Positions 17,116 to 62,892 are shown, counted from the stretch's first letter. The stretch is 64,000 nucleotides of DNA from Chloroherpetonaceae bacterium (GCA_033763895.1 JANRJQ010000007.1:322178-386177); one strand, 5' to 3'. The notes: generated by a model from the sequence alone, not told the origin. Numbers and translations are program-made.

Positions 17116-17124
17116 CATTTTTGT

Positions 17125-17911: not shown

Positions 17912-17922
17912 AAACAACGAAC

Positions 17923-18078
17923 GGCTAACACGGGTTTTGCGTCAGGCGGGCTGACGTGCAAACTTGGAGCATTGTGCTTCTATTGAACTTTAGTAATAAA
18001 TTGAAACTTTGTGCTCCGAACTGAAAGTCAGCGAAGCTAAACCCGCCCGAACGCAAAGCCGCTCCCCCATTGTGCGCC
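17923..18078 (+). repeat. attC-like imperfect palindrome 2
   Basis: GGCTAAC-ACGGGTTTTGCGTCAGGCGGGCTGAC pairs with GTCAG..CCCGCCCGAACGCAAAGCCGCT-ccccca-TTGTGCGCC. Its left box GGCTAAC is complementary to the cassette start TTAGCC at 16592. Confidence 0.65.
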
Positions 18079-18395
18079 TTTTAACTGTAAATCATCGAGA
18101 CAACAATTAGCCAAAACCTAACCAAATAAAGCTTTCAAATCGATATATTTTGCTTATTTACACAAATTATCTTAACATAAGTAGTTTACAACCTTCTTAT
18201 ATTTACTTTTCTTGCATGAATAGATGATTTTATGAGCAGAATTGGCCTTATTCCAACAGAATAAATCAAATTGCATTGATCAGGGTGAAAAGGAAACTTG
18301 ACACTTTGTGACTTGATTGAATATCACCGCTGTGAAACGAGGGCGAAGTCATAAAAAGTTAAAAGCTATTCATCTATTCTAATGATTTAATCCAT

Positions 18396-18863
18396 ATGAC
18401 CATTCAACAAAAAATAACCCCTTGCCTTTGGGTTGAAAAAGATGCAAGAGAAGTCGTCAATTATTATTTATCAATTTTTAAGGAAGGCAAACTCAAAGAT
18501 TATCGACAATTCACCAATCCACCGGAAATGGGGGGCGAGACTTTTGAAACGGCGGTAATGGAAATTGCAGGAATGGAATTGAGTATTTTAGCTGCAGGGC
18601 CACTATTTAAGTTTAACGAAGCCGTTTCGTTTGTCATTAATACCAAAGACCAAGCTGAAACCGATTATTATTGGGAAGCCATCACTTCAAATGGCGGCGA
18701 AGAAGGGGTATGCGGTTGGTGTAAAGATAAATATGGACTCTCGTGGCAAATTGTTCCCGTAGAATACTTCTCTCTTATTCATAATGATGACCCCAAAGTC
18801 AGAGAAAAAGCCTTAATGAATACTTTTAAGATGAAAAAGCTTATTCTATCGGAGCTAAAATGA
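18396..18863 (+). CDS. VOC-superfamily protein of the PhnB/YjdN type (3-demethylubiquinone-9 3-methyltransferase-like domain)
   Basis: 155 aa. ITPCLWVEKDAREVVNYYLSIF...GWCKDKYGLSWQIVP is characteristic of this family. Confidence 0.7.
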   Translation: MTIQQKITPCLWVEKDAREVVNYYLSIFKEGKLKDYRQFTNPPEMGGETFETAVMEIAGMELSILAAGPLFKFNEAVSFVINTKDQAETDYYWEAITSNGGEEGVCGWCKDKYGLSWQIVPVEYFSLIHNDDPKVREKALMNTFKMKKLILSELK

Positions 18864-42561: not shown

Positions 42562-42644
42562 TGATACTCCTTGCTTTCCAAAAGATACAAAGAATGAGAA
42601 TCAGTTGAGAATGAGATCGCTGCGATACTTCAGTGTTACAGCTT

Positions 42645-42985
42645 GTGCGGCGCTTAAGCCTGCGCGGTGGTTGAGCTTGTCGAAACAACCGCGCAATTTC
42701 TTTTCATGTCATTCCAGCAAGCGAAGCGCGTCGGGAATCCAGCACGCACCAAATTGAGGTGGTTGAGCTTCTAGAAACTACCGCATCGTTTGCCCTTTAT
42801 CCTTTGTGTTCTCAGTGATTCCTCAGTGTACTCCGTGTTTCGGAATTACAAACACAAAGGTCACAAAGAAATACCACAATGGACACGGAGAATAAATACA
42901 ATCATTTGTCATTCCCGCAAGCGGAGCGCGTCCGAAATCCTCCACGCAGCAAATTGAGGTGGTTGAGCCTCTCAAAATCATTCCT
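42645..42985. repeat. Family-B composite hairpin repeat cluster
   Basis: Composite 77-bp units GTCATTCC..CGGGAATCC..CACCAAATTGAGGTGGTTGAGC..GAAACTACCGC lie at 42708-42784 and 42908-42984, exactly 200 bp apart. An extra GGTGGTTGAGCTTGTCGAAACAACC lies at 42667-42691. Confidence 0.9.
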
Positions 42986-43090: not shown

Positions 43091-44110
43091 ATGAACATTG
43101 AAAAATCCCAAATAGAATTCATTTCAGAAATAAAGTATAAAGTCCGGCAGGCGCAATACGATGCCTTAAAAGCGGTAAATATTCATCTCATCAATTTGTA
43201 TTGGGAGATTGGCAAGTCCATTGCTGAAAAACAGTCCGAAAGTTGGGGGAAAGCGATTGTCCCCACTTTATCCAAAGAGCTTCAATCAGAATTCCCCGGC
43301 ATTGGTGGCTTTTCTGAAGGAAATCTATGGTTGATGGCACAATTTTTTACTGAATATCACAGTGATGAAAATCTCGTACTACTGGTACGAGAAATTAGCT
43401 GGAGTAAGCATGTTACAATTCTTAAAAAATGTAAGGATAACTTAGAACGAAAATTCTATACTCTCTCAACAAAAAAATTCGGATGGACGAAAAACGTACT
43501 TGCCCATCACATTGAAAACAAAACCTATGAGAAGTACCTCTTAAATCAAACCAATTTCGAGCAAAGTTTACCTGATACCATTAAGAATCAAGCAGTATTG
43601 GCTGTAAAAGATGAATATACTTTCGATTTTTTGGGGCTATCTGAACAACACTCAGAGCGGGAATTAGAACAAGCCTTGATACAAAACATTAGTAACTTTC
43701 TGCTCGAAATGGGTCATCAGTTCACCTTTGTCGGGAATCAAGTGAAGTTAGCCGTAGCCGAGAAAGAGTATTTTATTGACTTGCTCCTTTTCCACCGGCA
43801 GTTGCAATGCCTTGTAGCAATTGAACTGAAAGTCGGAGAATTTCTACCCGAGTATAAAGGGAAAATGGAATTTTACCTTTCCGTACTCAATGATCAAATG
43901 AAACTACCCAATGAAAATGACAGCATTGGCATCATCATTTGCAAAGAAAAAAATAGAACCATTGTAGAATATTCGCTCAAAACTGCATCTCAACCGATTG
44001 GCGTGGCAACCTATACTCTAACGGAAGATTTGCCTTATCAATATCAAAATCTCCTGCCAAGCGGAAAGGAAATCAGCGATAAAATCAATAAGTATTTTGG
44101 TGAAATATAG
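43091..44110 (+). CDS. YhcG-like PDDEXK nuclease domain protein (DUF1016)
   Basis: 339 aa. LYWEIGKSIAEKQ...WGKAIVPTLSKELQSEFPGIGGFSEGNLWLMAQFF and C-terminal IDLLLFHRQLQCLVAIELK (PD-ExK-like). Confidence 0.8.
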   Translation: MNIEKSQIEFISEIKYKVRQAQYDALKAVNIHLINLYWEIGKSIAEKQSESWGKAIVPTLSKELQSEFPGIGGFSEGNLWLMAQFFTEYHSDENLVLLVREISWSKHVTILKKCKDNLERKFYTLSTKKFGWTKNVLAHHIENKTYEKYLLNQTNFEQSLPDTIKNQAVLAVKDEYTFDFLGLSEQHSERELEQALIQNISNFLLEMGHQFTFVGNQVKLAVAEKEYFIDLLLFHRQLQCLVAIELKVGEFLPEYKGKMEFYLSVLNDQMKLPNENDSIGIIICKEKNRTIVEYSLKTASQPIGVATYTLTEDLPYQYQNLLPSGKEISDKINKYFGEI

Positions 44111-44142: not shown

Positions 44143-44316
44143 CGGCGCCGCACTGCGCCCTGCGCGGTGGTTGAGCCTGTCGAAACCACTGTCTGAACTG
44201 TGATTTATAGGATTAAGTGATGAACATGATTATTAATGTCATTCCCGCAAGCGAAGCGCGTCGGGAATCCTGCACGCACCAAATTAAGGTGGTTGAGCCT
44301 GTCGAAACTACCGCGT
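44143..44316. repeat. Family-B composite hairpin repeat cluster
   Basis: GGTGGTTGAGCCTGTCGAAACCAC at 44167-44190 and a 77-bp composite unit at 44238-44314, in direct orientation with 42908-42984. Confidence 0.9.
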
Positions 44317-44649
44317 GATGAAGACACGCACGCAGATGACACTGATTGAGCAGATTAACGCAGATATTCAGTGAAAATCAGTTCATACTGCGTTTCAGTA
44401 ACCGGGATGAAAAAGATTTTATTATAGACTCAAAAAATCGCTTTCAAAATTCATTTCCCTTTTCTAAATTCTTAAATCTTTGTTCCTTCAAGAGAAAAAA
44501 TATTTGTCTATTGATGAAAGAATGACTTAAATTTCTTAAGGTGATATTTATTTTAAATTATTAAAATGTAAATCCGTAAATTGCAAAAAAAATCGATTAT
44601 TTTTTATATCCAGTAGCTTCAATAGTAAAAAATCTAAACTCAACCTATA

Positions 44650-45369
44650 ATGGATAACTTAGATAAATTAACCAAGCTTTATTCAAATTTAATAAAGCTC
44701 ATAAATAATAGAAAAGATGACTTTAATGAAGAATTTGTAAGTGTTTTTAACTATGCAAAAGGCTCAGAATACGACAATAAAGAATTCGACAATAAATTTC
44801 TAATTGTTGGTAGATCAGTAAATGGATGGACAAATTACAATAAAAATGAATTGTTATTAAAAGAAGGTGAAATTATAAACCGAATAGGAAATGATAACCT
44901 ACAATGGACAATTAACAATTGGGGTATAAATTACGGTAAAACCTATAACACAAAAAGGTCTGCCTTTTGGAGAATAAATAGAAAAATAACCGATTTAGTA
45001 TATCAAGTAAGTGATTATAATTTTAATAAACTTAGCTGGACAAACCTTTACAAAATATCAAATGCTGCAGGAGGAAATCCTTCTCCAAAATTACAGGCTT
45101 TACAATTTGATCTTGTGAAACAAATATTAATTGAAGAAATAAGAATTTTAGAACCAAAATACATCGTTTTTCTCACTGGTTACGACTGGGCAAAACCATT
45201 CTTAATTGAAAACGATAACATTAAAATAGAATTACTCAATCAGACTAATTATGTAAAAGCAAAAGGCTCTTTTTTTAATAGTAAATTTGCAGTTGGACTA
45301 CATCCACAAGGAAAATTAGAAATGAAACATGCAGAAGAAATATTAGAATATTTGGATTTAAAAAATTAA
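44650..45369 (+). CDS. Hypothetical protein with weak UDG-superfamily-like hints
   Basis: 239 aa, AT-rich. FLIVGRSVNGW near the N-terminus and FAVGLHPQGK near the C-terminus loosely resemble UDG-fold motifs A and B. The inference is weak. Confidence 0.45.
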   Translation: MDNLDKLTKLYSNLIKLINNRKDDFNEEFVSVFNYAKGSEYDNKEFDNKFLIVGRSVNGWTNYNKNELLLKEGEIINRIGNDNLQWTINNWGINYGKTYNTKRSAFWRINRKITDLVYQVSDYNFNKLSWTNLYKISNAAGGNPSPKLQALQFDLVKQILIEEIRILEPKYIVFLTGYDWAKPFLIENDNIKIELLNQTNYVKAKGSFFNSKFAVGLHPQGKLEMKHAEEILEYLDLKN

Positions 45370-50070: not shown

Positions 50071-51495
50071 ATGTTTCTCCGATCTCCTCATTTTCGGTTT
50101 TTGATCCTCGTAATTACATTTAATTTTCTTGTTTTCAGTGGCTGCACCAACTCAAAGATAAGCACATCTAGTTTATTTACTGAAAACCATCCTTTCATTT
50201 TCATAAAGGAATATCAAAAGTATATCCCCATTTCCGTGAATAAAGGAGATACAACAATTTACCCTGATTTGGTTTTTCATAAATTGGAAAAAGGAAGTCA
50301 TCAATACCTCAATTATTTCAATATATCATCAGAAGTTAATCAAGAAATTATAAATTTCGACACCTCACTATCTTCCTCGATATCATACTTTAATCACAAT
50401 AAAGAGATATTCTTTTCGAATGGTAGTATTTTTTATTTATTTGAAAATTTTTCTAAAAATTTATTTATTTTTCTTGCAACCCCAATTTTTATGAGTTTAG
50501 GAGTAGCATTTGGACTACTCTTTAGCCCTTTTATTATCCAAAAGGCTATTTTTGACCCCCCTGAGGTAATCTATTTTGATGTAAGAGATGAAGTTACAAA
50601 TCAATCTCTTAATTCTACACTTATTTATTGTGTACCAAATCACTTTATTTCACAAGTATTTGAAGACAGCTTGGGTTTAAGGAAACGACTGAAAGAACCA
50701 AAACTTGAGTATATAAAAATTGATTCAAATACAATCAAATTGATTCAAACGAGTTTACCGAATACTCCAACAGCTTTAACAGCCTTAGGAAATGCACTTA
50801 TACCCTTTGCCCAAACTAAGTTTATTCATGATTTTGACTATCGATATTACTCTGAAAGATTAAAGCTTTCTAATCAATCAGACACGGATGTAGAGTCGAT
50901 TAATTCAATAAAAAAACGATTCAAAAGTCGTGATACTTCTTTTACCTCGATTTATCCATTTGGTATTACTAAAAAAGATTTCTTAAATCTATTAAATATA
51001 AATCTTACTTTGGAAGAAAGTAGGAAGGTCAATTTCGACAGCATAGGTTTTTACTTCATATTTCACCGAGAGGGATACATTCCTCAATACCTTTACATCG
51101 ATTATCAAAAATTTAAAGAGACTTTGTTTAAAATTAAATTAAAAAGAAGAGAAGTTTCTGTCTCTGACAATAATTTAAATTTCTTTAATGAATTTTTGAG
51201 AATTAACTACTTTTTGCATGAAGTATGGAACATTAAAAAAAAATTTCCCAAGAAATTTAAGTTAATCCCTTTAGATACCTATTTAACATATTCAAAATTA
51301 AGTGAAATTGATGCTTCAATTGAAATTATTGAGAAATTAATACCTCAGGAACCAGTAGTAGAAATTTATAAGTTTATAAAATATCAATTTTTAGGAGAAA
51401 CAACATCCGATAAATCAAGTTCTAGGTATTTAACAGACAAAGATTTTTTTCTATTTAAATATGATTATATCTTGTTCAATGAGGAACTTTATTAA
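50071..51495 (+). CDS. Hypothetical lipoprotein (AT-rich orphan)
   Basis: 474 aa. Lipobox LVFSGC, very Asn/Lys/Phe/Ile-rich, with one internal hydrophobic segment. Confidence 0.45.
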   Translation: MFLRSPHFRFLILVITFNFLVFSGCTNSKISTSSLFTENHPFIFIKEYQKYIPISVNKGDTTIYPDLVFHKLEKGSHQYLNYFNISSEVNQEIINFDTSLSSSISYFNHNKEIFFSNGSIFYLFENFSKNLFIFLATPIFMSLGVAFGLLFSPFIIQKAIFDPPEVIYFDVRDEVTNQSLNSTLIYCVPNHFISQVFEDSLGLRKRLKEPKLEYIKIDSNTIKLIQTSLPNTPTALTALGNALIPFAQTKFIHDFDYRYYSERLKLSNQSDTDVESINSIKKRFKSRDTSFTSIYPFGITKKDFLNLLNINLTLEESRKVNFDSIGFYFIFHREGYIPQYLYIDYQKFKETLFKIKLKRREVSVSDNNLNFFNEFLRINYFLHEVWNIKKKFPKKFKLIPLDTYLTYSKLSEIDASIEIIEKLIPQEPVVEIYKFIKYQFLGETTSDKSSSRYLTDKDFFLFKYDYILFNEELY

Positions 51496-51515
51496 ATTTC
51501 TAATTCAAATTTAGT

Positions 51516-52052
51516 ATGTCACACAATTACTATCTACCATCAGATTTAAGCTCGTTAATTTCAGATGAAAAAATTGATTTCTTCGTTTACCCAAATAGAC
51601 AAAAGCCGACTTATGAATATCTGAAAGTTATAACTTTTTTTATTATTTGGCTGATTATATGCGGGATGATTACTTTTGTTATACTATCACCTCTTATTAA
51701 TGGCGAAAGTGTAACTATTTACTTTAATGATAGAGCTTATACAGGAGACTCAAACAATTTGATTCCCGTTATAGTCTCCCTTATTATTCCTATTACATTT
51801 TTTATTGGAGGAGCAGGTGTACTTATATACAATATCAATCAAATGATGCAAAAAGGGGGAATATTTGTTGGTACGATTACTCGATTAATTCATTCTCACA
51901 AAGGAAAGATTAAGGTTTATTCTTGGAGAGAATTCCTCGGGGTTTTGGAAATTGATGCTGAAGAAGGAGATGTATCGTTGAAATTAAGGACTGGAACGGT
52001 TCAAAAACAAAACGGAAGTAAGGTCTTTTTACACGATATTGTTCATATTTAG
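51516..52052 (+). CDS. Hypothetical membrane protein
   Basis: 178 aa with two TM helices. The frame continues plausibly for 20 more codons past its TAG stop (see findings). Confidence 0.45.
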   Translation: MSHNYYLPSDLSSLISDEKIDFFVYPNRQKPTYEYLKVITFFIIWLIICGMITFVILSPLINGESVTIYFNDRAYTGDSNNLIPVIVSLIIPITFFIGGAGVLIYNINQMMQKGGIFVGTITRLIHSHKGKIKVYSWREFLGVLEIDAEEGDVSLKLRTGTVQKQNGSKVFLHDIVHI

Positions 52053-52304: not shown

Positions 52305-52705
52305 GCCAGCTCGATGCGGAATCCCGCACGCCTATCATTCACACGGTGACCACGGCATGCGCCGCCTCACTTCGTCTCTCGAAGTATCGAAACAACCTGC
52401 TACAAGACACGGTCATTTCGAGGCTTGTAATATGCTCGTCAAGCTCGCACCGAGAAATCTCAGACCTTCTGCACTTCAAATATTGAGGTGGCTCTGCTTG
52501 TCGAAACCACCGTCTCGCGGGGAACAGCTTTTGAAAGGAAACCACAAAGAACACAAAGAAGAAACACAAAAGGACACAGAGAGAAAACGAGGTCATTCCG
52601 GCAAGTCGCTTCTGCGACGCGTCCGGAATCCTGCATGCCCATCATTACCACGGTGGTTGAACCTGCGACACACGGAGCCTGTCGAAGTGCCGAAACCACG
52701 AACCA
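52305..52705. repeat. Family-B composite hairpin repeat cluster
   Basis: Contains GGAATCCCGCACGCC, GAGGTGGCTCTGCTTGTCGAAACCACC, a CACAAAG-rich tract, and a ~108-bp unit at 52592-52699 that is homologous to 53409-53509. Confidence 0.85.
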
Positions 52706-52749: not shown

Positions 52750-53055
52750 TTACTCCTCAAATGGATTCTTTTCAGGACTTTGACGATTGGAAAAAAAGGA
52801 GAGGATTTCAATTCGATCGTCACTCACCTGATAATACATTGTGTTGTACTTCAGTATAACAAAACGGTGAATGGGTTTGACTTTACTTTTTGGGAAAACA
52901 AGTGGGTTTCGTGAAATTAAATCAATAACACGGTCAACTTTTTGGGCGAGTCGTTGAATCTCTTTCTCAGTAAAATTCTCTTGCAGATACTTAATCGTTT
53001 TTGAAAGCTCTTCTACGGCATTATCCGTCCAAACCACGTTATAACCACTTTTCAT
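52750..53055 (-). CDS. Type II toxin, RelE/ParE family
   Basis: 101 aa. VVWTDNAVEELSKTIKYLQENF...RFVILKYNTMYYQVSDDRIEILSFFSNRQSP is typical of ParE/RelE. It overlaps the upstream antitoxin gene by 17 nt. Confidence 0.8.
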   Translation of the reverse strand: MKSGYNVVWTDNAVEELSKTIKYLQENFTEKEIQRLAQKVDRVIDLISRNPLVFPKSKVKPIHRFVILKYNTMYYQVSDDRIEILSFFSNRQSPEKNPFEE

Positions 53056-53272
53056 ACAGTGCTTTCACTGCAAGATGTGAGGTCACTTTGCCGAGTTTTG
53101 CATCGTCAATTCCCTTTTCAATTGATGCCTTTTCATCACGAGTCAAATCATCCCACCATTCTTGATTTTCTTCCTCCTTGATTTTAAGAAGTTTCTCAAT
53201 GACTTTCGTGTCTTCCAACCCTGAAAGCCATTGAATCAATTCAATCTTCTTATCGGAAACTTGACCTTGCAT
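53039..53272 (-). CDS. Putative antitoxin
   Basis: 77 aa, acidic and helical. Overlaps the toxin start, as in a classic toxin-antitoxin operon. Confidence 0.6.
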   Translation of the reverse strand: MQGQVSDKKIELIQWLSGLEDTKVIEKLLKIKEEENQEWWDDLTRDEKASIEKGIDDAKLGKVTSHLAVKALYEKWL

Positions 53273-53344: not shown

Positions 53345-53780
53345 AACCTTGATAAATCCGTGGTTGAACCTCTTCGGCGGTTGAGCCTCTTAAAACAAAT
53401 CACTGCATGTCATTCCAAGAAGCAAAGCGCGTCCGGAATCCTGCACGCCCATCATTAGCACGGTGGTTGAGCCTGCGCCGCACTGAGCCTGTCGAAGTGT
53501 CGAAACCACCTGATCCACGGTCATTTCGTCAGGCTCAATGACCTCTTTCTTTGTCATTTCGAGCGCAGCGAGAAATCCCATCGCTTTCCCCAAGCCAGAG
53601 ATTTCTCCCTCCGCTTCGCTCCGTTCGAAATGACAACCGTTTTTGCAAATCATTCCGCCTTGTCCGTTATCTGAAAAGCAAAACTCACTCATGAATGAAA
53701 AAGGAATGTCATACCAGCTTGTCCGGTCTCAGACATTCAAAAAACTTCTGGGGTGGTTGAGCCTGTCGAAACCACAGAGC
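53345..53780. repeat. Family-B composite hairpin repeat cluster with GTCATTTCGA variants
   Basis: A unit at 53409-53509, inverted GTCATTTCGAGCGCAGCGAGAAATCC / GGAGGGAGAAATCTCTGG-type hairpins at about 53550-53640, and GGTGGTTGAGCCTGTCGAAACCAC at 53752-53775. Confidence 0.85.
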
Positions 53781-53963
53781 CTCAAGAGACTAACCTCTTC
53801 TCATAGAATACAAATTACTCAGACCTATCAGATGAACGCCATAGACCGAGTGAAACTGTCTCAACAGCATCAACAGCGTAAACATGAGAGATAAACACAA
53901 CTATACTTTTCCCTTAAAAAATCGCTTTAGATTATCACTCCTCTTTTCTATCTTTTGATAATC

Positions 53964-53992
53964 TTGTTCACTATCGACTCTCTAACTTAAAT
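53964..53992 (+). promoter_or_regulatory. Promoter-like TTGTTC-N17-TTAAAT inside conserved block C, pointing into array 2
   Basis: TTGTTC at 53964-53969, a 17-nt spacer, then TTAAAT at 53987-53992. Same hexamers and spacing as 12993-13021. Confidence 0.3.
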
Positions 53993-54035: not shown

Positions 54036-54166
54036 AAAGACCAATGCGAGATAAGAAGCGGTTTTACGCCTGTTTGAATTTAATTTCACTTTAACTTAAA
54101 TAATAGGGTGGTTATGCGAATGTTTCTTGAATATTTTGAGGGCGTTCGTATATCCTATTGTTCAGC
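54036..54166 (+). promoter_or_regulatory. attI-like leader, copy 2
   Basis: CCAATGCGAG..GCGGTTTTACGCCTGTTTGAATTTAATTTCA..GGTGGTTATGCGAATGTTT..TTCGTATATCCTATT-GTTCAGC. Collinear with 13515-13647 by manual alignment, with the inner repeats more degenerate. Confidence 0.55.
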
Positions 54167-54179
54167 TAAACTCCGCTTC

Positions 54180-54256
54180 GCCGAACATCGGTTTTGCGTG
54201 AGTCTTCGGGCTGCTTCGCGCCCACTGGCCCCCGCAAAGCCGCTCCCCATTAGCGG
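54180..54256 (+). repeat. attC-like imperfect palindrome 3 (short, no associated ORF)
   Basis: GCCGAAC-ATCGGTTTTGCG pairs with CGCAAAGCCGCT-cccca-TTAGCGG. It lies immediately after the leader. Confidence 0.5.
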
Positions 54257-54302
54257 TCAGTGTAACCAGATATCAGTTCAAAAACAAGACATGATAGACT
54301 AA

Positions 54303-55478
54303 ATGATTAAAATAACAAGTAACATATCGTTACCAAAAATTCAGAACTTATATACTCAACTTGCTTCATCCAATGATTCTGTGATTGATGTGCATTTGCC
54401 TAAAAAGATAGAAAAACTGGATTTCGGACTGTTATTCTCTTACCTACAGTTTTTATCCACTTGGGTAAGAAATAATCGTTCAGGTAAATTGTATCTACCA
54501 ATTAACAACACGGAAGAAGCAATTGAATATTTGGATGCCAATGAGTTTGTTTATCCATCCATTGTATTGGCTTGGGAGAAAGAAATTGTAAATGCGAATG
54601 GGGAAAACATAAAAGGTGAATTGAAGAATCCGAGTAAGGAATATTTCAATCGTATGGATTTCTTCGACTTAAAAGGAACTTCCGTTCCTATTTATTGCTT
54701 CGACCACGACAAATCCAACAGAGGCCTTTCACGCCACTTTTACAAGAATTTTAGAGAGTTAGTAAATGAAACCACTCTAGGTTTTAATCTTTTCAATGCC
54801 TTTAAAAAAGTTGGAGACTTCAACAAAGGTGTGTTTAGAACAGGTGTAAAAGGTCATTATGATGACTTTATAGCAATAATCCACGAACTTTTTACGAATA
54901 CACACGAACACGCAAAGACGAATGAACTTGGCTATAATCTATATCCAAATATTCGTGCATTACAATTGAAATTCCACAAGAAGCCGATTAACAAATTTGT
55001 TGAACAGTTTCAAGATTATGTAGGTCTTGTTCAATATTTCAATTCAGGATTTAATATAAATCCCCAAGGTGAATTATATCTGTTAGAAATTTCGATTTTG
55101 GATAGTGGTCCTGGCTTTGTGAAACGATATAAAAAGATAAGCGACTACAATTTGAACATATCCGAAGAGGTTGAAATTATCAAGCAATGTTTATACAGAC
55201 ACAACACTTCTGCTGATGGACTCAGAGGTGAAATTAAAGGTATTGGGCTTGACAGAGTTCTACAAACACTTGATGGAAAAGGATTTGTAAGAATAAAAAC
55301 TGGACGGGCAGATATTTTTCGGGACATGAGAAACAATCGCTATCATCATCATGACAATGCAAGCGAAATTCAGTTGAATGATTTCCAGAATAACAGCACC
55401 AACAATTTTACTGTATATCCAGTAGCAGAAGGCACTTTACTTTCTATTTTTTATCCCTTAGAATTTAATCAGCTATGA
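54303..55478 (+). CDS. GHKL/HATPase_c-like ATP-binding protein with an uncharacterised N-terminal domain
   Basis: 391 aa. N-box IIHELFTNTHEHA, G1 box LEISILDSGPGF and G2 box IKGIGLDRV. No HisKA H-box. Its stop overlaps the next start in an ATGA overlap (55475-55478). Confidence 0.7.
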   Translation: MIKITSNISLPKIQNLYTQLASSNDSVIDVHLPKKIEKLDFGLLFSYLQFLSTWVRNNRSGKLYLPINNTEEAIEYLDANEFVYPSIVLAWEKEIVNANGENIKGELKNPSKEYFNRMDFFDLKGTSVPIYCFDHDKSNRGLSRHFYKNFRELVNETTLGFNLFNAFKKVGDFNKGVFRTGVKGHYDDFIAIIHELFTNTHEHAKTNELGYNLYPNIRALQLKFHKKPINKFVEQFQDYVGLVQYFNSGFNINPQGELYLLEISILDSGPGFVKRYKKISDYNLNISEEVEIIKQCLYRHNTSADGLRGEIKGIGLDRVLQTLDGKGFVRIKTGRADIFRDMRNNRYHHHDNASEIQLNDFQNNSTNNFTVYPVAEGTLLSIFYPLEFNQL

Positions 55479-57745
55479 GAAACTACTTTATATACCAATA
55501 TGAAGACGCAGTTTCTTCAACAGGAAAACTGAGAGTTACGGTATTGTTTGTTCACCAAACAAAAATCGGTTCTCAGAATGAATTGGCTCAAGAATTAAAT
55601 AACTTTTTTCAGGAACACAGTATTACCGACAAATTGGTGGTTCTTGTTCCGAAATATCTTGATGCTTCATCTTTAGAATATTTCAAATCAGGCAGAGAAA
55701 CAACATTTCAAAGGGTTCCGGGCAAGTCAGTAGACTATTTTGATAAATGTTTGATGATTTATGAGTTTGATGCTGGCGGCAGTTTTACTTTGATTGAAGG
55801 AAAGAAACCAAAACATGAATCAAAGTTCATTTCACATCTATTGAGAAGCGGTTCAACTGTAATTTTCAAAAACAATGGCGGTTTGGTTGAATCAACTCCT
55901 GACCATCACTTTGTTTTCCCAAGCAATAAACACTGTTCTAAGTTTATACGAACAGGAAATGTTCTGATAAATCAATCAGAGATATTCTTTCTCGCTGTTC
56001 AACTTTTGAAACATACGAAGGATAAAAATATTATATACTGCGATACATCATCAATCAATGTTCTGCCATATTCGGTTTTTGAATTGAGAAGAAGGTTTAA
56101 GCAAGAGTTTGATTGTCCAATTGTCCATAGTTTTAAATCATACGATGTATTTGAAAAAAGCACTGATAGTTTTTCTCCTGAATCGTTAGTATTAATTTCA
56201 GCATCTACATCAGGTAATATCATTGACAGGCTATTAAAGGAAAAAAGAGCCGATAAAGAACAGATACAGATTATTTACTTCTTAGGTCGAAATGATAAAT
56301 TCTTAAACCATAGTGCTAATATAATTTGCAACCTGACAAAGGATTCTGATTTTCAATTAGGAGAAGAAGAATTTGAAACCTACAACAATCCTGAAGATTG
56401 TAAACTTTGTAAGAACCATTCACGACCAATAAATATTCGTGGAGACGTATTTCTTACAGTTCAGCCGAAAGTTGAAAGGCATCTTCTAACAATAAAACCT
56501 GAATATTTCGCAAAGAGTATAGCAACCTTTGCTGAACACTATAAAAGCAGATTGCCAAACGAAGGTGTAATTAAGGTCTATTACAAAGACAATTTTCCTG
56601 ATGCGAACTACGAAGTTTATTTTGATATTGTTTATCTGCTAAAGAACTTAACCAAGTTCACAAGGTTTGACGAAGCACTAAATAGACACATTGACAAATA
56701 TATACCTGCGAATACAAAATATCTTTTGCATCTCCCTGACATTGGTTCAGAAGAACTCGCAAAGCATATCCTTACTAAAATTCCATCAAGTATAAAACCC
56801 GAGTTAATAAAACTAGATTCAGGCTTTACAACTAAAATCAAAGAAGAATCTGGAACTGTTGTCATTGTTGCTTCCTGCATTACCACAGGCAAAAAACTAT
56901 TACAGATAAGCCGATTAATGCGAAATATGGAGAAGTTGAATTTGGTTTATTTCGTGGGTATTTACCGACCTGTAAATGACACGTTCGCAACTGACTTAAT
57001 TAGTGATTTAAAGAAAGGAAAAGACAAAAGCGATGAACGACCATTTGTCGCAGTTGAAACCATTTACTGTTCAATACAGCAAACCGAAACTTCTTGGGAA
57101 CTGGAAAAAGTCATTTTTGAAGACTTTATAGGTTCACTTGATGAAGACAAAGAGCCAGAAGTTTACAGCTATGTAAATGAACGACTTGAAATTCTCCGTG
57201 ATAACAAAAAACTTCGTGGTTTTAGTAATGATGTTTTACTGAAAACTGTTGGCAAACAAGATTTACGATTAAGGAAGAATTTTGCGTTCTGGAATTCATT
57301 TGAATATAAAGAAAATGAAGTAGCTCAATCAGAAGTTTACTTTACCATTTCGACAATCATTTCAAACCTTGAACAAAAGCAAATCAATTCTCATCCATCA
57401 CTTAAGCAGACAAACTATGTGAGAAATATGCTAAGTCCGAGAAACTTTCACCGATTTAATGACGGCATTATTCAAGCATCACTGCTAAGAAGCGGCAAGA
57501 CTGAATATTTCTCCTATGACCTTGACAGCGAACTTAGTTTGCAAATGAAAGAATTCCTGTTAAGTATCATTGACAAATACAATTCAGCAGACGGTGAGGC
57601 CTTAATGGAATTTTTGCTTGCAATTGGCATCAGGCGACTAAAAATGAAAAAAGAAGACCTAAAAGAAGTATTAATCAAAGCAATTAATTGTCCAGACAAA
57701 ATAGTATCAAGATTTTCAGAATACATACATAGTAAGATTCCATAA
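55475..57745 (+). CDS. Large protein with two degenerate phosphoribosyltransferase (PRTase)-like folds
   Basis: 756 aa. HHFVFPSNKHCSKFIRTGNVL...IYCDTSSINVLPYS...LVLISASTSGNII forms the first PyrE-like unit, and GTVVIVASCITTGKKLL marks the second. In both PRPP loops the acidic pair is replaced by Ala/Ser. There is a CKLC dyad between the units and a helical C-terminal ~230 aa. Confidence 0.6.
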   Translation: MRNYFIYQYEDAVSSTGKLRVTVLFVHQTKIGSQNELAQELNNFFQEHSITDKLVVLVPKYLDASSLEYFKSGRETTFQRVPGKSVDYFDKCLMIYEFDAGGSFTLIEGKKPKHESKFISHLLRSGSTVIFKNNGGLVESTPDHHFVFPSNKHCSKFIRTGNVLINQSEIFFLAVQLLKHTKDKNIIYCDTSSINVLPYSVFELRRRFKQEFDCPIVHSFKSYDVFEKSTDSFSPESLVLISASTSGNIIDRLLKEKRADKEQIQIIYFLGRNDKFLNHSANIICNLTKDSDFQLGEEEFETYNNPEDCKLCKNHSRPINIRGDVFLTVQPKVERHLLTIKPEYFAKSIATFAEHYKSRLPNEGVIKVYYKDNFPDANYEVYFDIVYLLKNLTKFTRFDEALNRHIDKYIPANTKYLLHLPDIGSEELAKHILTKIPSSIKPELIKLDSGFTTKIKEESGTVVIVASCITTGKKLLQISRLMRNMEKLNLVYFVGIYRPVNDTFATDLISDLKKGKDKSDERPFVAVETIYCSIQQTETSWELEKVIFEDFIGSLDEDKEPEVYSYVNERLEILRDNKKLRGFSNDVLLKTVGKQDLRLRKNFAFWNSFEYKENEVAQSEVYFTISTIISNLEQKQINSHPSLKQTNYVRNMLSPRNFHRFNDGIIQASLLRSGKTEYFSYDLDSELSLQMKEFLLSIIDKYNSADGEALMEFLLAIGIRRLKMKKEDLKEVLIKAINCPDKIVSRFSEYIHSKIP

Positions 57746-57779
57746 TAACATGATAACTTAATCGAATAAAAACACCGAA

Positions 57780-57914
57780 CCGCTAACAGCACCTTGTCAA
57801 AAGCGGGGCGGACAATGGTAAAATGAACATTAGATCATTAAATAAGCATTTGTGCTTGCATGACAGTTTGGTGCTCCTAAAGCCCCGCCCTCGGCAATAC
57901 CCAAAACGTTCAGC
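57780..57914 (+). repeat. attC-like element 4 (least canonical)
   Basis: Left box CCGCTAAC-AGC, inner stem GGGCGG (57806-57811) / CCGCCC (57885-57890), a centre homologous to elements 1 and 5 (TGCTTGCATGACAGTTTGGTG), and a right end AAAAC-GTTCAGC. Arm pairing is otherwise poor. Confidence 0.4.
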
Positions 57915-57944
57915 TAAACTCCGCTTCGCTGCGTTTAGCTGAAC
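57908..57944. repeat. Perfect 12-bp-stem hairpin at a cassette junction
   Basis: GTTCAGCTAAAC (57908-57919), a 13-nt loop, then GTTTAGCTGAAC (57933-57944). Its first 22 nt are identical to 54160-54181. Confidence 0.85.
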
Positions 57945-58001
57945 GGGGAGCATAAACAACTTCACAGCATACATTAAACAAACAAAAATATTTTTGGACA
58001 G

Positions 58002-59771
58002 ATGACAGTAAAACCCAAAATCACAGAACTACTCAAACGACTTAATGACGGAGTAATTGAAAAGGAAGAAGTAATCGCTTTATCTCTGCTTTCTTCAGTT
58101 GCAGGAGAAAGTATTTTTCTTTTGGGTGCACCGGGAGTAGCAAAATCCTTGGTTGCAAGACGACTTAAATACGCTTACAAAGACGGCAGTTCATTTGAAT
58201 ATCTTATGAACCGCTTTAGCACACCAGACGAAATATTTGGACCCGTTTCAATTTCCCAACTTAAAGACCACGACAAATACGAGAGAATTATAAAAAATTA
58301 CTTACCGACAGCAACGGTTGTTTTCCTTGACGAAATTTGGAAAGCGGGACCTTCAATACAAAACGCTTTACTAACCGTTCTTAACGAGAAAATATACCGA
58401 AACGGAGAGCAGGAAGTTCAAGTGCCGATGAAAGCACTTATTTCAGCTTCAAACGAATTGCCAAGCAAAGGCGAAGGACTTGAAGCCCTTTGGGATAGAT
58501 TTCTTGTTCGCTTAATTGTTGATGGTGTAAAGGACAAGCAGAGTTTCAATGACATGATTTCAAAGACATTGAACTCATACAGCGACACCGTTGGTGAAGC
58601 ATTGAAAATTTCTGATGACGAATACAAAAAGTGGAACAAACAAATTGACGAAATAGAAATTCTCGAAAATGTATTCAATGTAATTCACGTTATCAGGAGT
58701 TTTATAGACCTACACAATCAGCGAGAAGAAAACAAACAAAATCCGATTTACATTTCAGACCGTAGGTGGAGAAAAATTGTTAGACTTCTTAGGACTTCTG
58801 CATTTCTCAATGACCGTAAAATGGTTGATTTGATGGATTGCTTTTTAATTAAGGATTGTCTTTGGAATGAGACAGAACAAATTCAAACTGTTTCTCAGTT
58901 TGTTAAGGACGCTATCCAAAAACACGGATATAATCTTTCATTAAATATGAGTTCAATTTCAGACGAGTTGAAAGACTTTTGGAAAGAAGTGCTTGAAGAA
59001 ACAAGTCACATGAAAAAAGTTCAAATACCCAAAATTTATTATCAGCATTTCTATTTCATTGAAGGTTTTGACCGACCTCTCATAAAAATTTCAGACTATA
59101 ATCAATTAGGTGACGACTACATTAATGTAACATTCTATCAAAATTCAAATGAGGATTGGCAAAGAAGAAATTACCCGCAGAATTTTAGAATTAAATTAAG
59201 TAATAAGCCCAACAACATTGTTCATGATGGTCAACTAAGAAAAATTGAAACAACAGACAGTGAAAAACCTGCAACTAAAAGACCACACCCTGCGGTTAAA
59301 AAAGATTGGGATAAACGAGTAAAAGTAGTTCTCACAACTACAAGTAACCTCAAATCAAGAATAGATAGTTTTAAAAGTAATGACTTAAAGCATATTAGAA
59401 CAAATCTATTTGTAAATGAATCCTATGCAGAAATTGTCGAAGACAACCTAAGACAACTTCAAAATGAAATTGAAAAATTAGAAGTTGAAGTGAGTAGAAT
59501 TCAACATTTTTACGAAAATGTCGAACATGATGTTTTCATTGATTCTGCATTGCTTAGTTTGACAAATGGGAAAAGCGATTTTGCCCTATCAGAATTGACA
59601 GATGAATTTGAAGAGTGGATTTTCGAACAATTGCAAAATCTTGAGATTACAAATTCAAATGAATTTCTAAGCAACGACTTGAATTTCTATTTGAATAATA
59701 CTGACATAGATGAAGACCTTTATAATGAACTTATAGAAGCTATCGAAAACCGATTAGATAATGGACAATAA
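58002..59771 (+). CDS. ravA: MoxR-class AAA+ ATPase, RavA-like
   Basis: 589 aa. Collinear with E. coli RavA as I recall it: GESIFLLGAPGVAKSLVARRLKYAY..FEYLMNRFSTPDEIFGP..VVFLDEIWKAGPSIQNALLTVLNE..LISASNELP..LEALWDRFLVR..SDRRWRKIVRLLRTSAF. The C-terminal region is divergent. Confidence 0.85.
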   Translation: MTVKPKITELLKRLNDGVIEKEEVIALSLLSSVAGESIFLLGAPGVAKSLVARRLKYAYKDGSSFEYLMNRFSTPDEIFGPVSISQLKDHDKYERIIKNYLPTATVVFLDEIWKAGPSIQNALLTVLNEKIYRNGEQEVQVPMKALISASNELPSKGEGLEALWDRFLVRLIVDGVKDKQSFNDMISKTLNSYSDTVGEALKISDDEYKKWNKQIDEIEILENVFNVIHVIRSFIDLHNQREENKQNPIYISDRRWRKIVRLLRTSAFLNDRKMVDLMDCFLIKDCLWNETEQIQTVSQFVKDAIQKHGYNLSLNMSSISDELKDFWKEVLEETSHMKKVQIPKIYYQHFYFIEGFDRPLIKISDYNQLGDDYINVTFYQNSNEDWQRRNYPQNFRIKLSNKPNNIVHDGQLRKIETTDSEKPATKRPHPAVKKDWDKRVKVVLTTTSNLKSRIDSFKSNDLKHIRTNLFVNESYAEIVEDNLRQLQNEIEKLEVEVSRIQHFYENVEHDVFIDSALLSLTNGKSDFALSELTDEFEEWIFEQLQNLEITNSNEFLSNDLNFYLNNTDIDEDLYNELIEAIENRLDNGQ

Positions 59772-61350
59772 ATTCGATAGGTTTCAAACATTCGGTTCAA
59801 TTGCAGATGAAGCTACTAGAAGAAAAGTAGTTCAAAGCATTTATTTTCAGTTGCAAAAGAAATCAGAAAGCGGCATTGGCTTCGCCAATGCTGATACAGA
59901 TAATTTTGCTACTGCTATTAATGACATTCTCTCTAATCCCACAATGAAAGAATTGTGTTCAAAAGACCCTGAACTTTCTGAAAAGATAACACAAGATATT
60001 CTTGACTTTATAAATAAGACCAAGAAACAATTAAATAAAACTGAAAATCCTTTTGAAAATGAAATAGAGCTAAAGCAAGAATTTGAACATAGCAAAAGGT
60101 CTGAATTCAAAAATAAATGGGAGAAAGTAAATCCAACGATTAAGAACAACTATGACACAAAGGAGCTCGATGTTACTTTTTATGAAAAGGAGTTTGCCAA
60201 AAGTTTGGATGAAAAAATTAAAAACTACAAAGACAAGCCAAGTTTTGAAAGTGTAAAAGAACACTTCAATGAAAAGTGGGACGAATTACTATACAAGAGA
60301 CAAACAAAATGGGAACTTGACCAGATAGAAGAACAACGGAAAAAATTCTGTGAAGAATTATACAAACGAATTGAAGAACTAAAAAAACTTCAAGAAGCAC
60401 TTGAGCCATTTACCAAAGAATTAGGACGGCTTTGGGATATGAGTAAAGGAAATTGGCAACGAGTAAATCTTGATATTTTAAAACAGTATGCTGAACTTTT
60501 GCAGAGAGATAAATCACTAAAAGAACTTGCTGAAATGCTTGGCAAAATGCGGCAAGCTGAAAAGGAGTTTGAAGAAGAACTTTTTGCAAACATTCAATTG
60601 AAACCTGAATGGAAAGTGGAGCACGCCAGCAAATCGGACTTAATCGGTATTCACGAAAGCGATGATTTAAGCAGTTTGCTTCCTTCTGAAACAGCTTTAC
60701 TTGCTGACGAAACGATGCAATCCGTATTCTTCAAAAAGTTTGCGGAAAAGAAACTGCAAACATTCGAGTATCAAGCAAAAATGCTTTCATACCGAGAAGA
60801 AGAATTTCAGGACAAACGACAAAAGGAAAAAGAAGAAGCAAAAGGGCCTTTTATCATTTGTGTTGACACGAGCGGTTCAATGCACGGAACACCTGAAACT
60901 GTTGCCAAGACACTTTGTTTCGCCATTTTGAAAATCGCCATTCGTTATAACCGAAAGTGTTATCTCATTTCGTTTTCGACAGGTATTGAAACGCTTAACC
61001 TGACAGATTTGAAAAACTCTTTGGATAAAATCATTTCTTTTCTTTCAATGAGTTTTCACGGTGGCACAGACGCAACTCCTGCTATGAGAGAAGCACTTAG
61101 AATGTTAACAACTCAGGACTACAAAAAGGCAGACGTGATAATGGTTTCCGACTTTGTGATGTCTGCATTTGACAAAACAACACAAGACAAAGTAAAATCA
61201 GCGAAAGACAACAAAACAAAATTTCATAGTTTGGTAATTGGTAACAGCCAAAATCCTGCGACAATTAAGGACTTTGACAGTAATTGGTTTTACGACTTGA
61301 ACAATCCAAAGAGCTTATTGACACTCATTAAAAACATTAACGAACTATGA
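59761..61350 (+). CDS. viaA: VWA-domain protein, ViaA-like
   Basis: 529 aa, overlapping ravA by 11 nt. GRLWDMSKGNW...LAEMLGKMRQAE and the MIDAS motifs GPFIICVDTSGSM..FHGGTDATPA..VSDF are collinear with E. coli ViaA as I recall it. Confidence 0.8.
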   Translation: MDNKFDRFQTFGSIADEATRRKVVQSIYFQLQKKSESGIGFANADTDNFATAINDILSNPTMKELCSKDPELSEKITQDILDFINKTKKQLNKTENPFENEIELKQEFEHSKRSEFKNKWEKVNPTIKNNYDTKELDVTFYEKEFAKSLDEKIKNYKDKPSFESVKEHFNEKWDELLYKRQTKWELDQIEEQRKKFCEELYKRIEELKKLQEALEPFTKELGRLWDMSKGNWQRVNLDILKQYAELLQRDKSLKELAEMLGKMRQAEKEFEEELFANIQLKPEWKVEHASKSDLIGIHESDDLSSLLPSETALLADETMQSVFFKKFAEKKLQTFEYQAKMLSYREEEFQDKRQKEKEEAKGPFIICVDTSGSMHGTPETVAKTLCFAILKIAIRYNRKCYLISFSTGIETLNLTDLKNSLDKIISFLSMSFHGGTDATPAMREALRMLTTQDYKKADVIMVSDFVMSAFDKTTQDKVKSAKDNKTKFHSLVIGNSQNPATIKDFDSNWFYDLNNPKSLLTLIKNINEL

Positions 61351-61369
61351 CGACAGACAGAATGCCAGC

Positions 61370-61502
61370 AGGTAACAGCCGTTTCGCGTAATGGCGGTTG
61401 CGGTGCTTCGTATGACAGTTCTGTGGTAGGTTCAAGTGTAGTTCTTCGATTAAACTTTTATGCTAAAAATCCGCCACTACGCCAAGCCAGCAACCTTTAG
61501 CA
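61370..61502 (+). repeat. attC-like imperfect palindrome 5
   Basis: AGGTAAC-AGCCGTTTCGCGTAATGGCGG pairs with CCGCCACTACGCCAAGCC..cct-TTAGCA. Most positions are identical to element 1 (16463-16597) on manual alignment. Confidence 0.65.
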
Positions 61503-61571
61503 GTCATGTTTTTTACATTGTCTCTCATCAATAAGCGACTTAAAAACTCACTTTAATCGGCTTCACTTGCG

Positions 61572-62741
61572 GTGAATAATTTAGCATTTGCCGCATTTTT
61601 GCGGAGAATAGTGTTTATATTTACCGCAACAAAGTTTCAAAAAGTGGCTAAATACATTTACGAATACGAAAATTGGACAGAATTCACTTGGCGTGAAAAA
61701 TCCATAAATGCACTATTTGGGGAAGTTCGCAATCTGCAAGGCAAGATTATAGGGCAGATGAATACACTTGGTTTTGCCACAAAAGAACAGGCAACACTCA
61801 CTACACTGACACTTGACATTATTAAATCATCTGAAATAGAAGGAGAAAAACTCGACTATGACCAAGTTCGTTCGTCAATTGCAAGAAGACTTGGCATAAA
61901 TACCGCCGGGCTTATTCCATCCAATAGAAATGTGGATGGCGTTGTAGAGATGATGCTTGATGCAACTCAGAATTATCAAAACCCACTCACAAACACGCAA
62001 CTGTTTGGCTGGCATTCGGCACTTTTTCCAACTAGATATAGCGGAATGCACAAAATAGCGGTTGGTCGCTATCGAATAGGTGAAATGCAAATCGTTTCAG
62101 GTGCTATGGGAAAAGAAAAAGTTCATTACGATGCAGTTCCTGCAAGCAGTGTAAAAGAAGAAATGGATATGTTCTTAAAATGGTTTAATGACAACTCCCC
62201 AACTGACCCTGTACTAAAATCTGCAATCGCTCATTTTTGGTTTATCATCATTCACCCCTTTGACGATGGAAACGGAAGAATTGCAAGAGCGATATCAGAT
62301 TTAATGCTTGCCCGTGCAGACAAAACATCTGAACGATATTATAGCATGTCAAACCAAATTTTGATTGAACGAAAGCAATATTATGAGGTTTTGCAAAAAG
62401 TTCAACACAGCAGTGGCGATATAACAGAATGGTTAGACTGGTTTTTAAATTGCCTTAAGAATTCGTTGTTGGCTACAGACACTACTCTGCAAAAAATATT
62501 GCGTAAAACTGAATTTTGGAAAATTCACGAAAAAACCGAATTTAACGAACGACAGAGATTGGTATTAAATAGGCTCTTTGATGGATTTGATGGGAAACTA
62601 AAATCATCCAAGTGGGCAAAAATTGCAAAATGCTCGCCCGACACAGCATTGCGTGACATTAAGGACTTAATTGACAAGGGAATTTTACGCCAAGAGCATC
62701 AAGGCGGACGAAGCACAAACTACGAACTTGCCAACTTCTGA
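61572..62741 (+). CDS. Fic/DOC family protein (AMPylase-type fold with an N-terminal DUF4172-like region)
   Basis: Fic motif HPFDDGNGRIARA. The true start is probably the GTG at 61644, giving MAKYIYEYENWTEFTW. C-terminal winged-helix-like tail. Confidence 0.85.
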   Translation: MNNLAFAAFLRRIVFIFTATKFQKVAKYIYEYENWTEFTWREKSINALFGEVRNLQGKIIGQMNTLGFATKEQATLTTLTLDIIKSSEIEGEKLDYDQVRSSIARRLGINTAGLIPSNRNVDGVVEMMLDATQNYQNPLTNTQLFGWHSALFPTRYSGMHKIAVGRYRIGEMQIVSGAMGKEKVHYDAVPASSVKEEMDMFLKWFNDNSPTDPVLKSAIAHFWFIIIHPFDDGNGRIARAISDLMLARADKTSERYYSMSNQILIERKQYYEVLQKVQHSSGDITEWLDWFLNCLKNSLLATDTTLQKILRKTEFWKIHEKTEFNERQRLVLNRLFDGFDGKLKSSKWAKIAKCSPDTALRDIKDLIDKGILRQEHQGGRSTNYELANF

Positions 62742-62753
62742 ATTTAATACTAC

Positions 62754-62892
62754 CGCCAACATTGGTTTAGCGTCATCTTGCTAACGTGCGACCTTGGTGC
62801 TTTGTTCTTCTATTCAAGTTCAGTGCAAATTTGAAAGTGAAATGCTCTGAAATTGCCACCTTAGGGTACCTGCAAACCGTTCCCCTTCAAAT
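62754..62892 (+). repeat. attC-like imperfect palindrome 6 (last in the array)
   Basis: CGCCAAC-ATTGGTTTAGCG pairs with CTGCAAACCGTT-cccc-TTCAAAT. Its centre is homologous to element 2 (..CTTGGTGCTTTGTTCTTCTATTCAAGTTCAGT..). Confidence 0.5.

Follow-up and report, generated by a model that had tools for sequence, protein, structure and literature searches.

What occupies positions 54,036 to 62,892 of the 64,000-nucleotide stretch of DNA analysed here (hereafter the window), where genes of a single strand alternate with long imperfect palindromes? The window is chromosomal DNA of a Chloroherpetonaceae metagenome-assembled genome (MAG); it lies on one 524-kb contig, and its proteins are exact matches to NCBI MDX2128675-MDX2128715. 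The bulk of it consists of housekeeping genes, including those for PBP1A, NFACT, mfd, RNase G, and pta (Pfam). Two low-GC stretches, at 13.5-18.9 kb (array 1) and 54.0-62.9 kb (array 2, the region in question), carry plus-strand genes only, with such palindromes between the genes; their GC content is 31-39% versus 41-51% in the flanks. Both are embedded between core genes of the same contig, 40 kb apart, and only 1.1 kb of DNA is left beyond array 2 within the window. An earlier note on this DNA had read the region as an integron-like cassette array, and this is supported by the complementarity of cassette starts to their own ends, by canonical arrays of the same attC family elsewhere, by a shared MoxR-VWA cassette, and by strain differences that involve whole cassettes. 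The likely explanation is an integron-type gene-capture system, of which the region and array 1 are the two cassette arrays in this Chloroherpetonaceae genome. The two arrays are genuine integron-style cassette arrays of the CALIN type (cluster of attC sites lacking integron integrase; Cury et al. 2016, PMC4889954), and the array family is integron-like and probably not run by a classical IntI.

A family covariance model (R2), built from an alignment of 28 homologous sites (4 in the window, the other 24 in other contigs), gave exactly six significant matches in the 64-kb window, all on the plus strand and all inside the two arrays; the next best match scored 10.9 bits (E 0.75). The four palindromes reported previously are real, with R2 matches at their positions, and two further sites lie in array 1. 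The six sites are as follows, with L numbers denoting loci in other contigs.

16464-16599, plus strand: attC 1a; R2 110 bits; ~92% identical to L152:6780-6913
17921-18076, plus strand: attC 1b; R2 107 bits; left part 85-87% identical to L152 attCs
54178-54256, plus strand: attC 2a; R2 32 bits, E 2e-6; outside the training set
57779-57915, plus strand: attC 2b; R2 36 bits, E 1e-7; outside the training set
61368-61503, plus strand: attC 2c; R2 108 bits; degenerate
62752-62886, plus strand: attC 2d; R2 74 bits; degenerate

The sites are 79-156 nt long. The parts of attC 1a are R'' GCACACAAC, L'' GGTTTTGCG, L' CGCCAAGCC, and spacer GCTCCCCA, then TTAGCCG; attC 1b has R'' ACGGCTAAC ... CGCAAAGCC GCTCCCCCA, then TTGTGCG; and attC 2b is a different subtype with a canonical R' (..AAAACG|TTCAGC, the bar marking the crossover). 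The AAC of R'' is present in all six sites, and the L boxes are intact in three and recognisable in six. The base before TT is G in two sites, A in three, and T in one. The arms GGTTTTGCG and CGCAAAGCC with a CCCCA bulge, which had been described as carried by the palindromes, are found in three of the six sites; 2c and 2d are degenerate, and 2b belongs to the other subtype. The likeness noticed earlier between one palindrome of array 2 and a copy in array 1 amounts to 85% identity (61357-61507 versus 16453-16603 in direct-repeat analysis). The motif CGCAAAGCCGCTCCCCATT, at no more than 3 mismatches, has 3 matches in the window versus 0.03 expected, and GGTTTTRCG has 10 versus 1.6 expected, 8 of the 10 being inside the arrays or their leaders. 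No Rfam family matches the sites.

Compensatory changes in 5 of the 13 consensus stem pairs across the 28 sites point to a conserved single-strand hairpin. When the right end of a site is swapped for the start of its own cassette (the circle form), the bottom strands fold end to end. In this own form, an R box of 8-9 bp is followed by a GGGG bulge of 4-5 nt, the L box, and a tip that varies; attC 1a forms a full hairpin, and the bottom strand of attC 2a likewise folds into R box, GGGG bulge, and L box. The geometry of the spacer is asymmetric, 2 nt x 6 nt. The heptamer GCGAAGC, a very stable DNA mini-hairpin, occurs 29 times in the whole window versus 8.7 expected; it is present on the bottom strand at three window attC positions (1a, and 2a twice) and in a hairpin at 57909, and its complement GCTTCGC is in the tips of several extracted class-1 attCs.

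Imperfect palindromes at gene ends might instead be repetitive extragenic palindromic (REP) repeats or terminators with no role in recombination, which would agree with the true REP-like families nearby and with the genome-wide over-representation of GCGAAGC. This is extremely unlikely. The sites are found only in the two arrays, they have no T-run, and a terminator scan calls none of the six; the left box fits the start of its own cassette 1.5-3.7 kb upstream and not its own right end, and homologous sites mark whole-cassette polymorphisms elsewhere. REP elements, bacterial interspersed mosaic elements, and REP-associated tyrosine transposase systems share with the sites imperfect palindromes in intergenic DNA, and REP-like families do adjoin the arrays, but such elements follow no cassette logic, are found outside arrays as well, and here are unrelated in sequence to the attC family. 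The sites are therefore rejected as ordinary REP elements or terminators.

Crossovers were placed by the conserved right end of the sites and by alignment to relatives, and the junctions were read by eye.

Array 1, plus strand: G13639|T13640, A16592|T16593, A18069|T18070
Array 2, plus strand: G54160|T54161, A54249|T54250, G57908|T57909, T61496|T61497, G62879|T62880

The last crossover had been put at a TTCAAAT box; alignment to relatives puts it 6 nt earlier, at G62879|T62880 (GTTCCCC). The first 8 bases of a cassette are complementary to its own R'' at 8 of 8 positions in cassettes 1a, 1b, and 2b and at 6 of 8 in 2a and 2d, and the complementarity is lost in 2c; the same R'' boxes fit the start of the next cassette at just 2-5 of 8. 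In the three perfect cases the own R'' box is 1.3-3.5 kb downstream of the cassette start. The start of cassette 1a, TTGTGTGC, is the reverse complement of its own R'' GCACACAA, that of cassette 1b, TTAGCCGT, of ACGGCTAA, and that of cassette 2b, TTAGCGGT, of ACCGCTAA; a C/G swap between cassettes 1b and 2b is compensated in R''. The observation first made for the block starting at 54250, that the left box of its palindrome is the reverse complement of its own 5' end and not of its neighbour's, is thus confirmed in 8 of 8 bases. By analogy with the integron cassette and chimeric-site model, which is established knowledge (summarised in PMC4889954), the own-end pattern is the signature expected of integron cassettes. 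On the same analogy, the attC bottom strand would fold into a hairpin in which an asymmetric unpaired spacer separates the R box from the L box and the tip is variable. A tyrosine recombinase would swap a single strand directly ahead of the TT in the R' box, and the cassette would exit as a circle and re-enter at attI. Strand exchange at a folded attC would thus let a cassette leave and return as a circle, and the first 8 bases would be complementary to the own R'' because the cassette circularises.

The same attC family is found in other contigs, where the own-end rule is perfect in 13 of 13 cassettes and crossovers are canonical G|TT; 31 of 32 homologous sites from other contigs have an 8-nt spacer that ends in CG|TT. 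A 3.1-Mb metagenome contig (L152) has attCs up to 92% identical to the two main types of the window, and five consecutive cassettes there obey the own-end rule perfectly, as do the first two cassettes of Flavisolibacter tropicus CP011390.1 (L180). These relatives show both the gain of a cassette at attI and the replacement of cassettes at G|TT. L141 differs from L137 and L140 by an extra 907-bp cassette exactly at the attI G|TT; in L148 and L150, the 15.4 kb that follow a ..CCG|TT junction are 100% identical, and the sequences preceding it are unrelated. The presence/absence polymorphism with breakpoints at TT boxes that the earlier note had named as a check is therefore seen in other loci. 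In L137 and L140, the junction G|TTACCAGC opens an 11.3-kb cassette, with R'' GCTGGTAAC at position 13074, that contains hsdRMS, DUF6932, a 310-aa gene, the M65A/B pair described below, and a 119-aa gene. The 16-nt CGCMAAGCCGCTCCCC gave 120 chance matches in high-GC genomes when scanned over genome contigs, with the left arm in none, and a metagenome scan with a pattern that included the spacer GCTCCCC gave no match, the spacer later proving specific to the MAG.

Each array is preceded by a leader.

13515-13639, plus strand: leader of array 1; repeats GGTTTTACG at 13539-13547 and 13589-13597; core CGTAAAACCATTTG at 13626-13639
54036-54160, plus strand: leader of array 2; GGTTTTACG at 54060-54068 and GGTTATGCG at 54110-54118; core CGTATATCCTATTG at 54147-54160

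The leader of array 2, reported as ~130 bp ending in G|TTCAGC at 54160, is real and has a 76% identical copy in array 1 (13515-13641 versus 54036-54162); both are ~125 bp long. Their layout is two direct repeats GGTTTTRCG 50 bp apart, then a core CGTA-N9-G|TT, and the repeat motif is that of the attC L'' box. The same core with the same spacing is present at the attI beside recombinase genes in L180, L182, L137, L141, and L181; the window cores CGTATATCCTATTG|TT and CGTAAAACCATTTG|TTGTGTGCAAC can be compared with CGTATATTTGATAG|TTGTGTGCAAC in F. tropicus (L180) and CGTATATTTAATCG|TT in Ferruginibacter (L182). No homologue of a full leader was found in the metagenome scan or in any locus fetched. 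By layout, the leaders are candidate attI-like platforms. A 54-nt conserved element, D8 (AAAAAATCGCTTT...CTTTTCTAAATTCTGAAAT.CTTGTTC), is present at 12945-12998, at 44432-44485, and, on the plus strand, at 53916-53969. It precedes both leaders; the third copy (44432-44485) is leaderless and upstream of a low-GC open reading frame (ORF) of 239 aa (44650-45369). From its position D8 may be a promoter or a platform flank.

The cassettes and their cargo are as follows.

13640-16592, plus strand: cassette 1a; PstI/BsuBI-type restriction-modification (R-M) system, methylase 13821-15389 and endonuclease 15391-16326 (Pfam Eco57I/N6_Mtase, BsuBI_PstI_RE)
16593-18069, plus strand: cassette 1b; 151-aa gene 16660-17115, DUF2200 17125-17487, glyoxalase/VOC-like 17504-17911 (Pfam)
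18070-18863, plus strand: array 1 tail; PhnB/3-dmu-9_3-mt-like VOC gene 18396-18863 (Pfam)
54161-54249, plus strand: cassette 2a; empty, 89 bp, almost only attC 2a
54250-57908, plus strand: cassette 2b; PDC-M65A 54303-55478 and PDC-M65B 55475-57745 (PADLOC E 8e-146 and 3.5e-289)
57909-61496, plus strand: cassette 2c; MoxR-type AAA+ ATPase 58002-59771, VWA 59761-61350 (Pfam bpMoxR/AAA_5, VWA_2)
61497-62879, plus strand: cassette 2d; DUF4172-Fic, SoFic-like, 61572-62741 (Pfam; PADLOC SoFic E 8e-48)

Window cassettes with genes are 1.4-3.7 kb long and hold one to three genes each. Their cargo is 82-95% identical in nucleotide sequence to Bacteroidota and metagenome sequences, and the encoded proteins have cluster mates at at least 90% amino acid identity in Parapedobacter, Rhodonellum, Aquiflexum, Phnomibacter, others, and many metagenomes; a search with the flanking NFACT protein at E<=1e-50 found only the protein itself. 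The cargo consists of anti-phage or conflict genes recently acquired from Bacteroidota-type gene pools. Its description in the earlier note as conflict-type content agrees with the PADLOC matches, but the GHKL and PRTase labels given there to the first gene pair were not confirmed: no Pfam or PDB sequence match was found, and only PDC-M65A/B was matched. This pair is a candidate two-gene defence system by sequence. It has 92% nucleotide identity to Parapedobacter-type loci in which the two genes follow a type I R-M system, and the homology covers the two ORFs only (54303-57744). Cassette 1a has 82-85% nucleotide identity to L152-L154, and one L152 cassette of 8.5 kb includes a PstI-type R-M pair 82% identical to that of the window. 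The MoxR-VWA cassette has 95% nucleotide identity to its relatives over 57949-61487 in L142-L147, attC included, and over 57949-61408 in L148-L151; in other array contexts it starts G|TTACCGGC, with a matching R'' GCCGGTAAC. The tail of array 1 has no R2 match downstream and cluster mates at at least 90% identity in many metagenomes; it is either a former attI right flank or a decayed cassette. Three packaging states of PDC-M65A/B were observed: in type I R-M islands with no attC, within the 11.3-kb cassette, and alone in the 3.7-kb window cassette. The 92% nucleotide identity between the copies with no attC and the window cassette makes them a rare entry point to how cassettes arise.

Since the record is a MAG and cargo 92-95% identical to Bacteroidota-type genomes is of lower GC than its surroundings, fragments of Bacteroidota arrays could have been misjoined into a Chloroherpetonaceae contig during assembly or binning. 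Such an artefact is very unlikely, because there are two separate arrays, each between core genes of one 524-kb contig, and the MAG-specific spacer GCTCCCCA is present in each of them and in none of 32 foreign copies. The leaders, among the loci fetched, are found only here, and an independent Logan assembly reproduces the PBP-NFACT flank.

The arrays raise the further question of which enzyme would act on them. As had been reported, no integrase is in view: Pfam found no tyrosine or serine recombinase in any sizeable ORF of the window. To count as a CALIN, a locus needs two or more attC sites and no integron integrase closer than 4 kb; the arrays have two and four sites, and no tyrosine recombinase was found in the 64 kb, of which 1.1 kb lies beyond array 2. 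In five other loci, the array begins 100-240 bp after the gene of a co-oriented 385-aa Xer-like recombinase. In L137 and L140, 105 nt separate the end of this tyrosine recombinase gene from the first G|TT. Family members of 100% (L137/L140), 77% (L181), 61% (F. tropicus, L180), and 60% (Ferruginibacter MAGs, L182 and L183) identity occupy the same position. In L141, the recombinase is reduced to ~20 codons beside an intact attI, and the array is the one that is longer by a cassette; positions 1-700 of L141 are thus another case of an orphan platform.

The closest solved relatives of the 385-aa protein are XerA and XerC-like proteins. Its alignment to archaeal XerA is continuous, that to VchIntIA is in two pieces with residues 214-247 skipped, and that to IntI1 has 43 gapped positions opposite residues ~197-260. 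With NCBIfam models it scores 190 bits for integron integrase TIGR02249 (cut-off 265) and 214 bits for XerA (cut-off 220); the integron-integrase model fits the N-terminal half as well as Xer models do, and there is an N-terminal extension of ~115 aa. The skipped region corresponds to the additional domain that is specific to IntI and lies near patch III; this domain is held necessary for integron recombination (Messier & Roy 2001, cited in PMC9668308; PMC8138268). On alignment, the 385-aa protein has no counterpart of it. The suspicion in the earlier note that the recombinase is not a classical IntI is supported by an adjacent recombinase without the IntI-specific insertion, but the reason given for it, the A before TT, does not hold, as relatives use G|TT. 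Going by adjacency in the relatives, the recombinase would be the co-oriented Xer-like enzyme, and since none is encoded in the 64-kb window, the enzyme for the window arrays would act in trans or have been lost.

If these features are taken together, the arrays may be orphan platforms of a distinct integron-like class that would be widespread in Bacteroidota and the Chlorobi group and whose cassettes would fold and be shuffled as those of integrons are, with a co-oriented 385-aa Xer-like recombinase lacking the additional domain, with cassettes that are defence islands of up to 11 kb, and with A|TT as a host-specific change of crossover; this fuller proposal is tentative. The arrays could also be a classical CALIN whose IntI is elsewhere in the genome or lost, the 385-aa gene being a bystander, either a conserved neighbour or a target. 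True-IntI integrons are known in Chlorobi, Ignavibacteriae, and Salinibacter (PMC9024848), and half of all CALINs sit in genomes encoding IntI elsewhere (PMC4889954); the attCs of relatives have the canonical AAC...GTT and chimeric-site logic, and the good fit of the N-terminal half of the recombinase to the integron-integrase model points the same way. A classical CALIN is nevertheless unlikely. No IntI-like gene was found in 48 loci with this cargo or attC family when screened with IntI1, four diverged copies of the recombinase are at a fixed short distance before the first G|TT, and the attC geometry, with its 2x6-nt spacer, is unlike that of class-1 sites; a class-1 model and R2 do not detect each other's sites. 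A viral contig (L196, IMGVR_UViG_3300027819_000009; positions 1885-4303 and 5690-6874) has four R2 matches on the minus strand, upstream of a 394-aa relative of the recombinase that is 36% identical; the layout is divergent, as in classical integrons, and the protein scores below the integron-integrase cut-off.

The copies in the window show signs of drift. The spacer GCTCCCC(C)A, then A|TT, is present on three different attC backbones (16585-16592, 18061-18069, and 54242-54249) and absent from all 32 homologous sites elsewhere, and it looks to have been transplanted within this genome. Cassette 2c begins with a feature of its own.

57909-57945, plus strand: perfect 12-bp hairpin TTCAGCTAAAC..GTTTAGCTGAAC; fold z -5 to -6

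Only from 57949 onward is the MoxR cassette homologous to its relatives, and the same 21 nt as at 57909 follow the attI of array 2 at 54161. The hairpin reads as a cassette start and matching R'' that were fused to the next cassette when the rest of the attC was deleted. This remnant has taken the place of the 9 native nt at the start of the MoxR cassette, whose last 9 nt before the crossover also differ from those of the relatives. The window arrays look partly decayed or host-adapted.

Several results weigh against an integron-type system served by the 385-aa recombinase. A home-made class-1 attC covariance model, built from 11 sites of IntI1 plasmids and thus narrow, scores class-1 sites at 44-60 bits and detects none of the six window sites; as it misses even canonical relatives, it is uninformative as a test of membership. 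Neither Pfam nor tblastn with IntI1 and the family recombinases found a recombinase gene or remnant in the 64-kb window. The link between recombinase and array is adjacency in five loci; the wider 385-aa family is large (7399 matches), and its relatives in viral contigs at 36-47% identity are mostly without such sites. Multi-gene cassettes of 3-11 kb are not typical of integrons. Cassette polymorphism is shown at other loci alone, as protein look-ups and metagenome scans found no close relative of the MAG. Finally, the three well-kept attCs have A|TT whereas 31 of 32 relatives have G|TT, the shared spacer breaks a family-covarying stem pair in attC 1b, and attC 2c and 2d are degenerate; because of these three features the arrays may be inactive.

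The last group of observations would agree with fossil arrays, which would have been imported or duplicated as blocks and would now be dead, their palindromes being at most insulators or RNA-stability elements. Along with the A|TT sites, the transplanted spacer that breaks a covarying pair, and the two degenerate sites, the deleted 5' end and the lack of a recombinase in 64 kb fit this explanation, as does the recombinase-less upstream context of D8 and REP clusters shared by both leaders. However, three cassettes keep perfect 8-nt own-end complementarity and full-length hairpins, an 89-bp empty cassette is in the first position, as expected of a recent event at attI, and the L141 attI beside a truncated recombinase still differs by an added cassette. 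Fossil arrays are a somewhat doubtful explanation; they share their origin with the integron-type system proposed above and differ from it only in present activity.

If the arrays are compared with known systems, CALINs are the closest in form. Both have at least two co-oriented attC-type sites between promoter-poor genes, no integrase nearby, chimeric-site logic, and accessory or defence cargo; the arrays here differ in that each keeps an attI-like leader, with two platforms 40 kb apart, and in their three A|TT sites and large multi-gene cassettes (1.4-3.7 kb). With classical integrons (IntI1; VchIntIA with Vibrio cholerae repeats), the family shares an attI-like layout of accessory direct repeats plus a simple site, insertion at G|TT, and a folded bottom-strand attC. 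It differs in that the recombinase of the complete relatives is without the IntI domain, has the N-terminal extension, and is co-oriented with the cassettes, and in that the spacer is a 2x6 asymmetric loop versus a roughly symmetric 5-6-nt bubble plus two extrahelical bases. Integrons with an integrase upstream of and co-directional with the array have the layout of the complete relatives, but their integrases are bona fide IntI with the additional domain. Xer/dif modules (XerA/XerC/XerD; Acinetobacter plasmid pdif) are also bounded by short recombination sites, and the closest solved relatives of the recombinase belong to this group; Xer sites, however, are a ~28-bp duplex with two 11-bp arms and not hairpins of 80-200 nt. 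Xer/dif modules are not known to have attI-style ordered arrays or own-end complementarity.

Integrons are known in Chlorobi and very rare in Bacteroidetes (PMC9024848), and the stockpiling of defence systems by integron arrays has been described since 2024 (bioRxiv 10.1101/2024.07.02.601686, 10.1101/2024.07.02.601719). In literature of which the coverage is incomplete, so that this is absence of evidence only, no description was found of arrays linked to a recombinase that lacks the IntI domain, or of any such arrays from Chitinophagaceae/Bacteroidota, and the IntegronFinder 2.0 supplements have no Flavisolibacter entry. If the arrays are CALINs only, they are a further case of integron arrays stockpiling defence systems, from a poorly sampled lineage of the Chlorobi group. 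If the proposed recombinase is the right one, there would be an integron-like family in Chitinophagaceae and relatives with cassettes of up to 8-11 kb, and single-strand attC recombination would not be tied to the IntI additional domain. Surveys requiring the IntI domain would then give too low a count for Bacteroidota, a phylum in which such elements are reported to be almost absent, and standard tools would miss them or label them integrase-less CALINs. The two recombinase-less leaders make the servicing of several attI platforms in trans directly testable.

Other features lie around the arrays. Two interleaved REP-like families, GGTGGTTGAGCCTGTCGAAACCAC and the hairpin TGTCATTCCCGCAAGCGAAGCGCGTCGGGAATCC, both unrelated in sequence to the attC family, cluster ahead of each array and also flank a YhcG/PDC-S02 nuclease gene (43091-44110) on either side.

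12603-12910: REP-like cluster
42633-42984: REP-like cluster
44159-44314: REP-like cluster
52480-52700: REP-like cluster
53369-53775: REP-like cluster

Between D8 and the leader of array 1, about ten 21-nt tandem repeats (TTCGACCTAAAACATTGAAA-like) and then a G-rich stretch occupy 13178-13510; the platform of array 2 has neither. A ParE-family toxin gene on the minus strand (52750-53055), with a small upstream ORF (53039-53272), lies in the REP-rich DNA that leads up to array 2. Directly after mfd, a two-ORF island at 50071-52052 (474 and 178 aa) has no Pfam or PADLOC match and no attC-type site, and its GC content is 29%.

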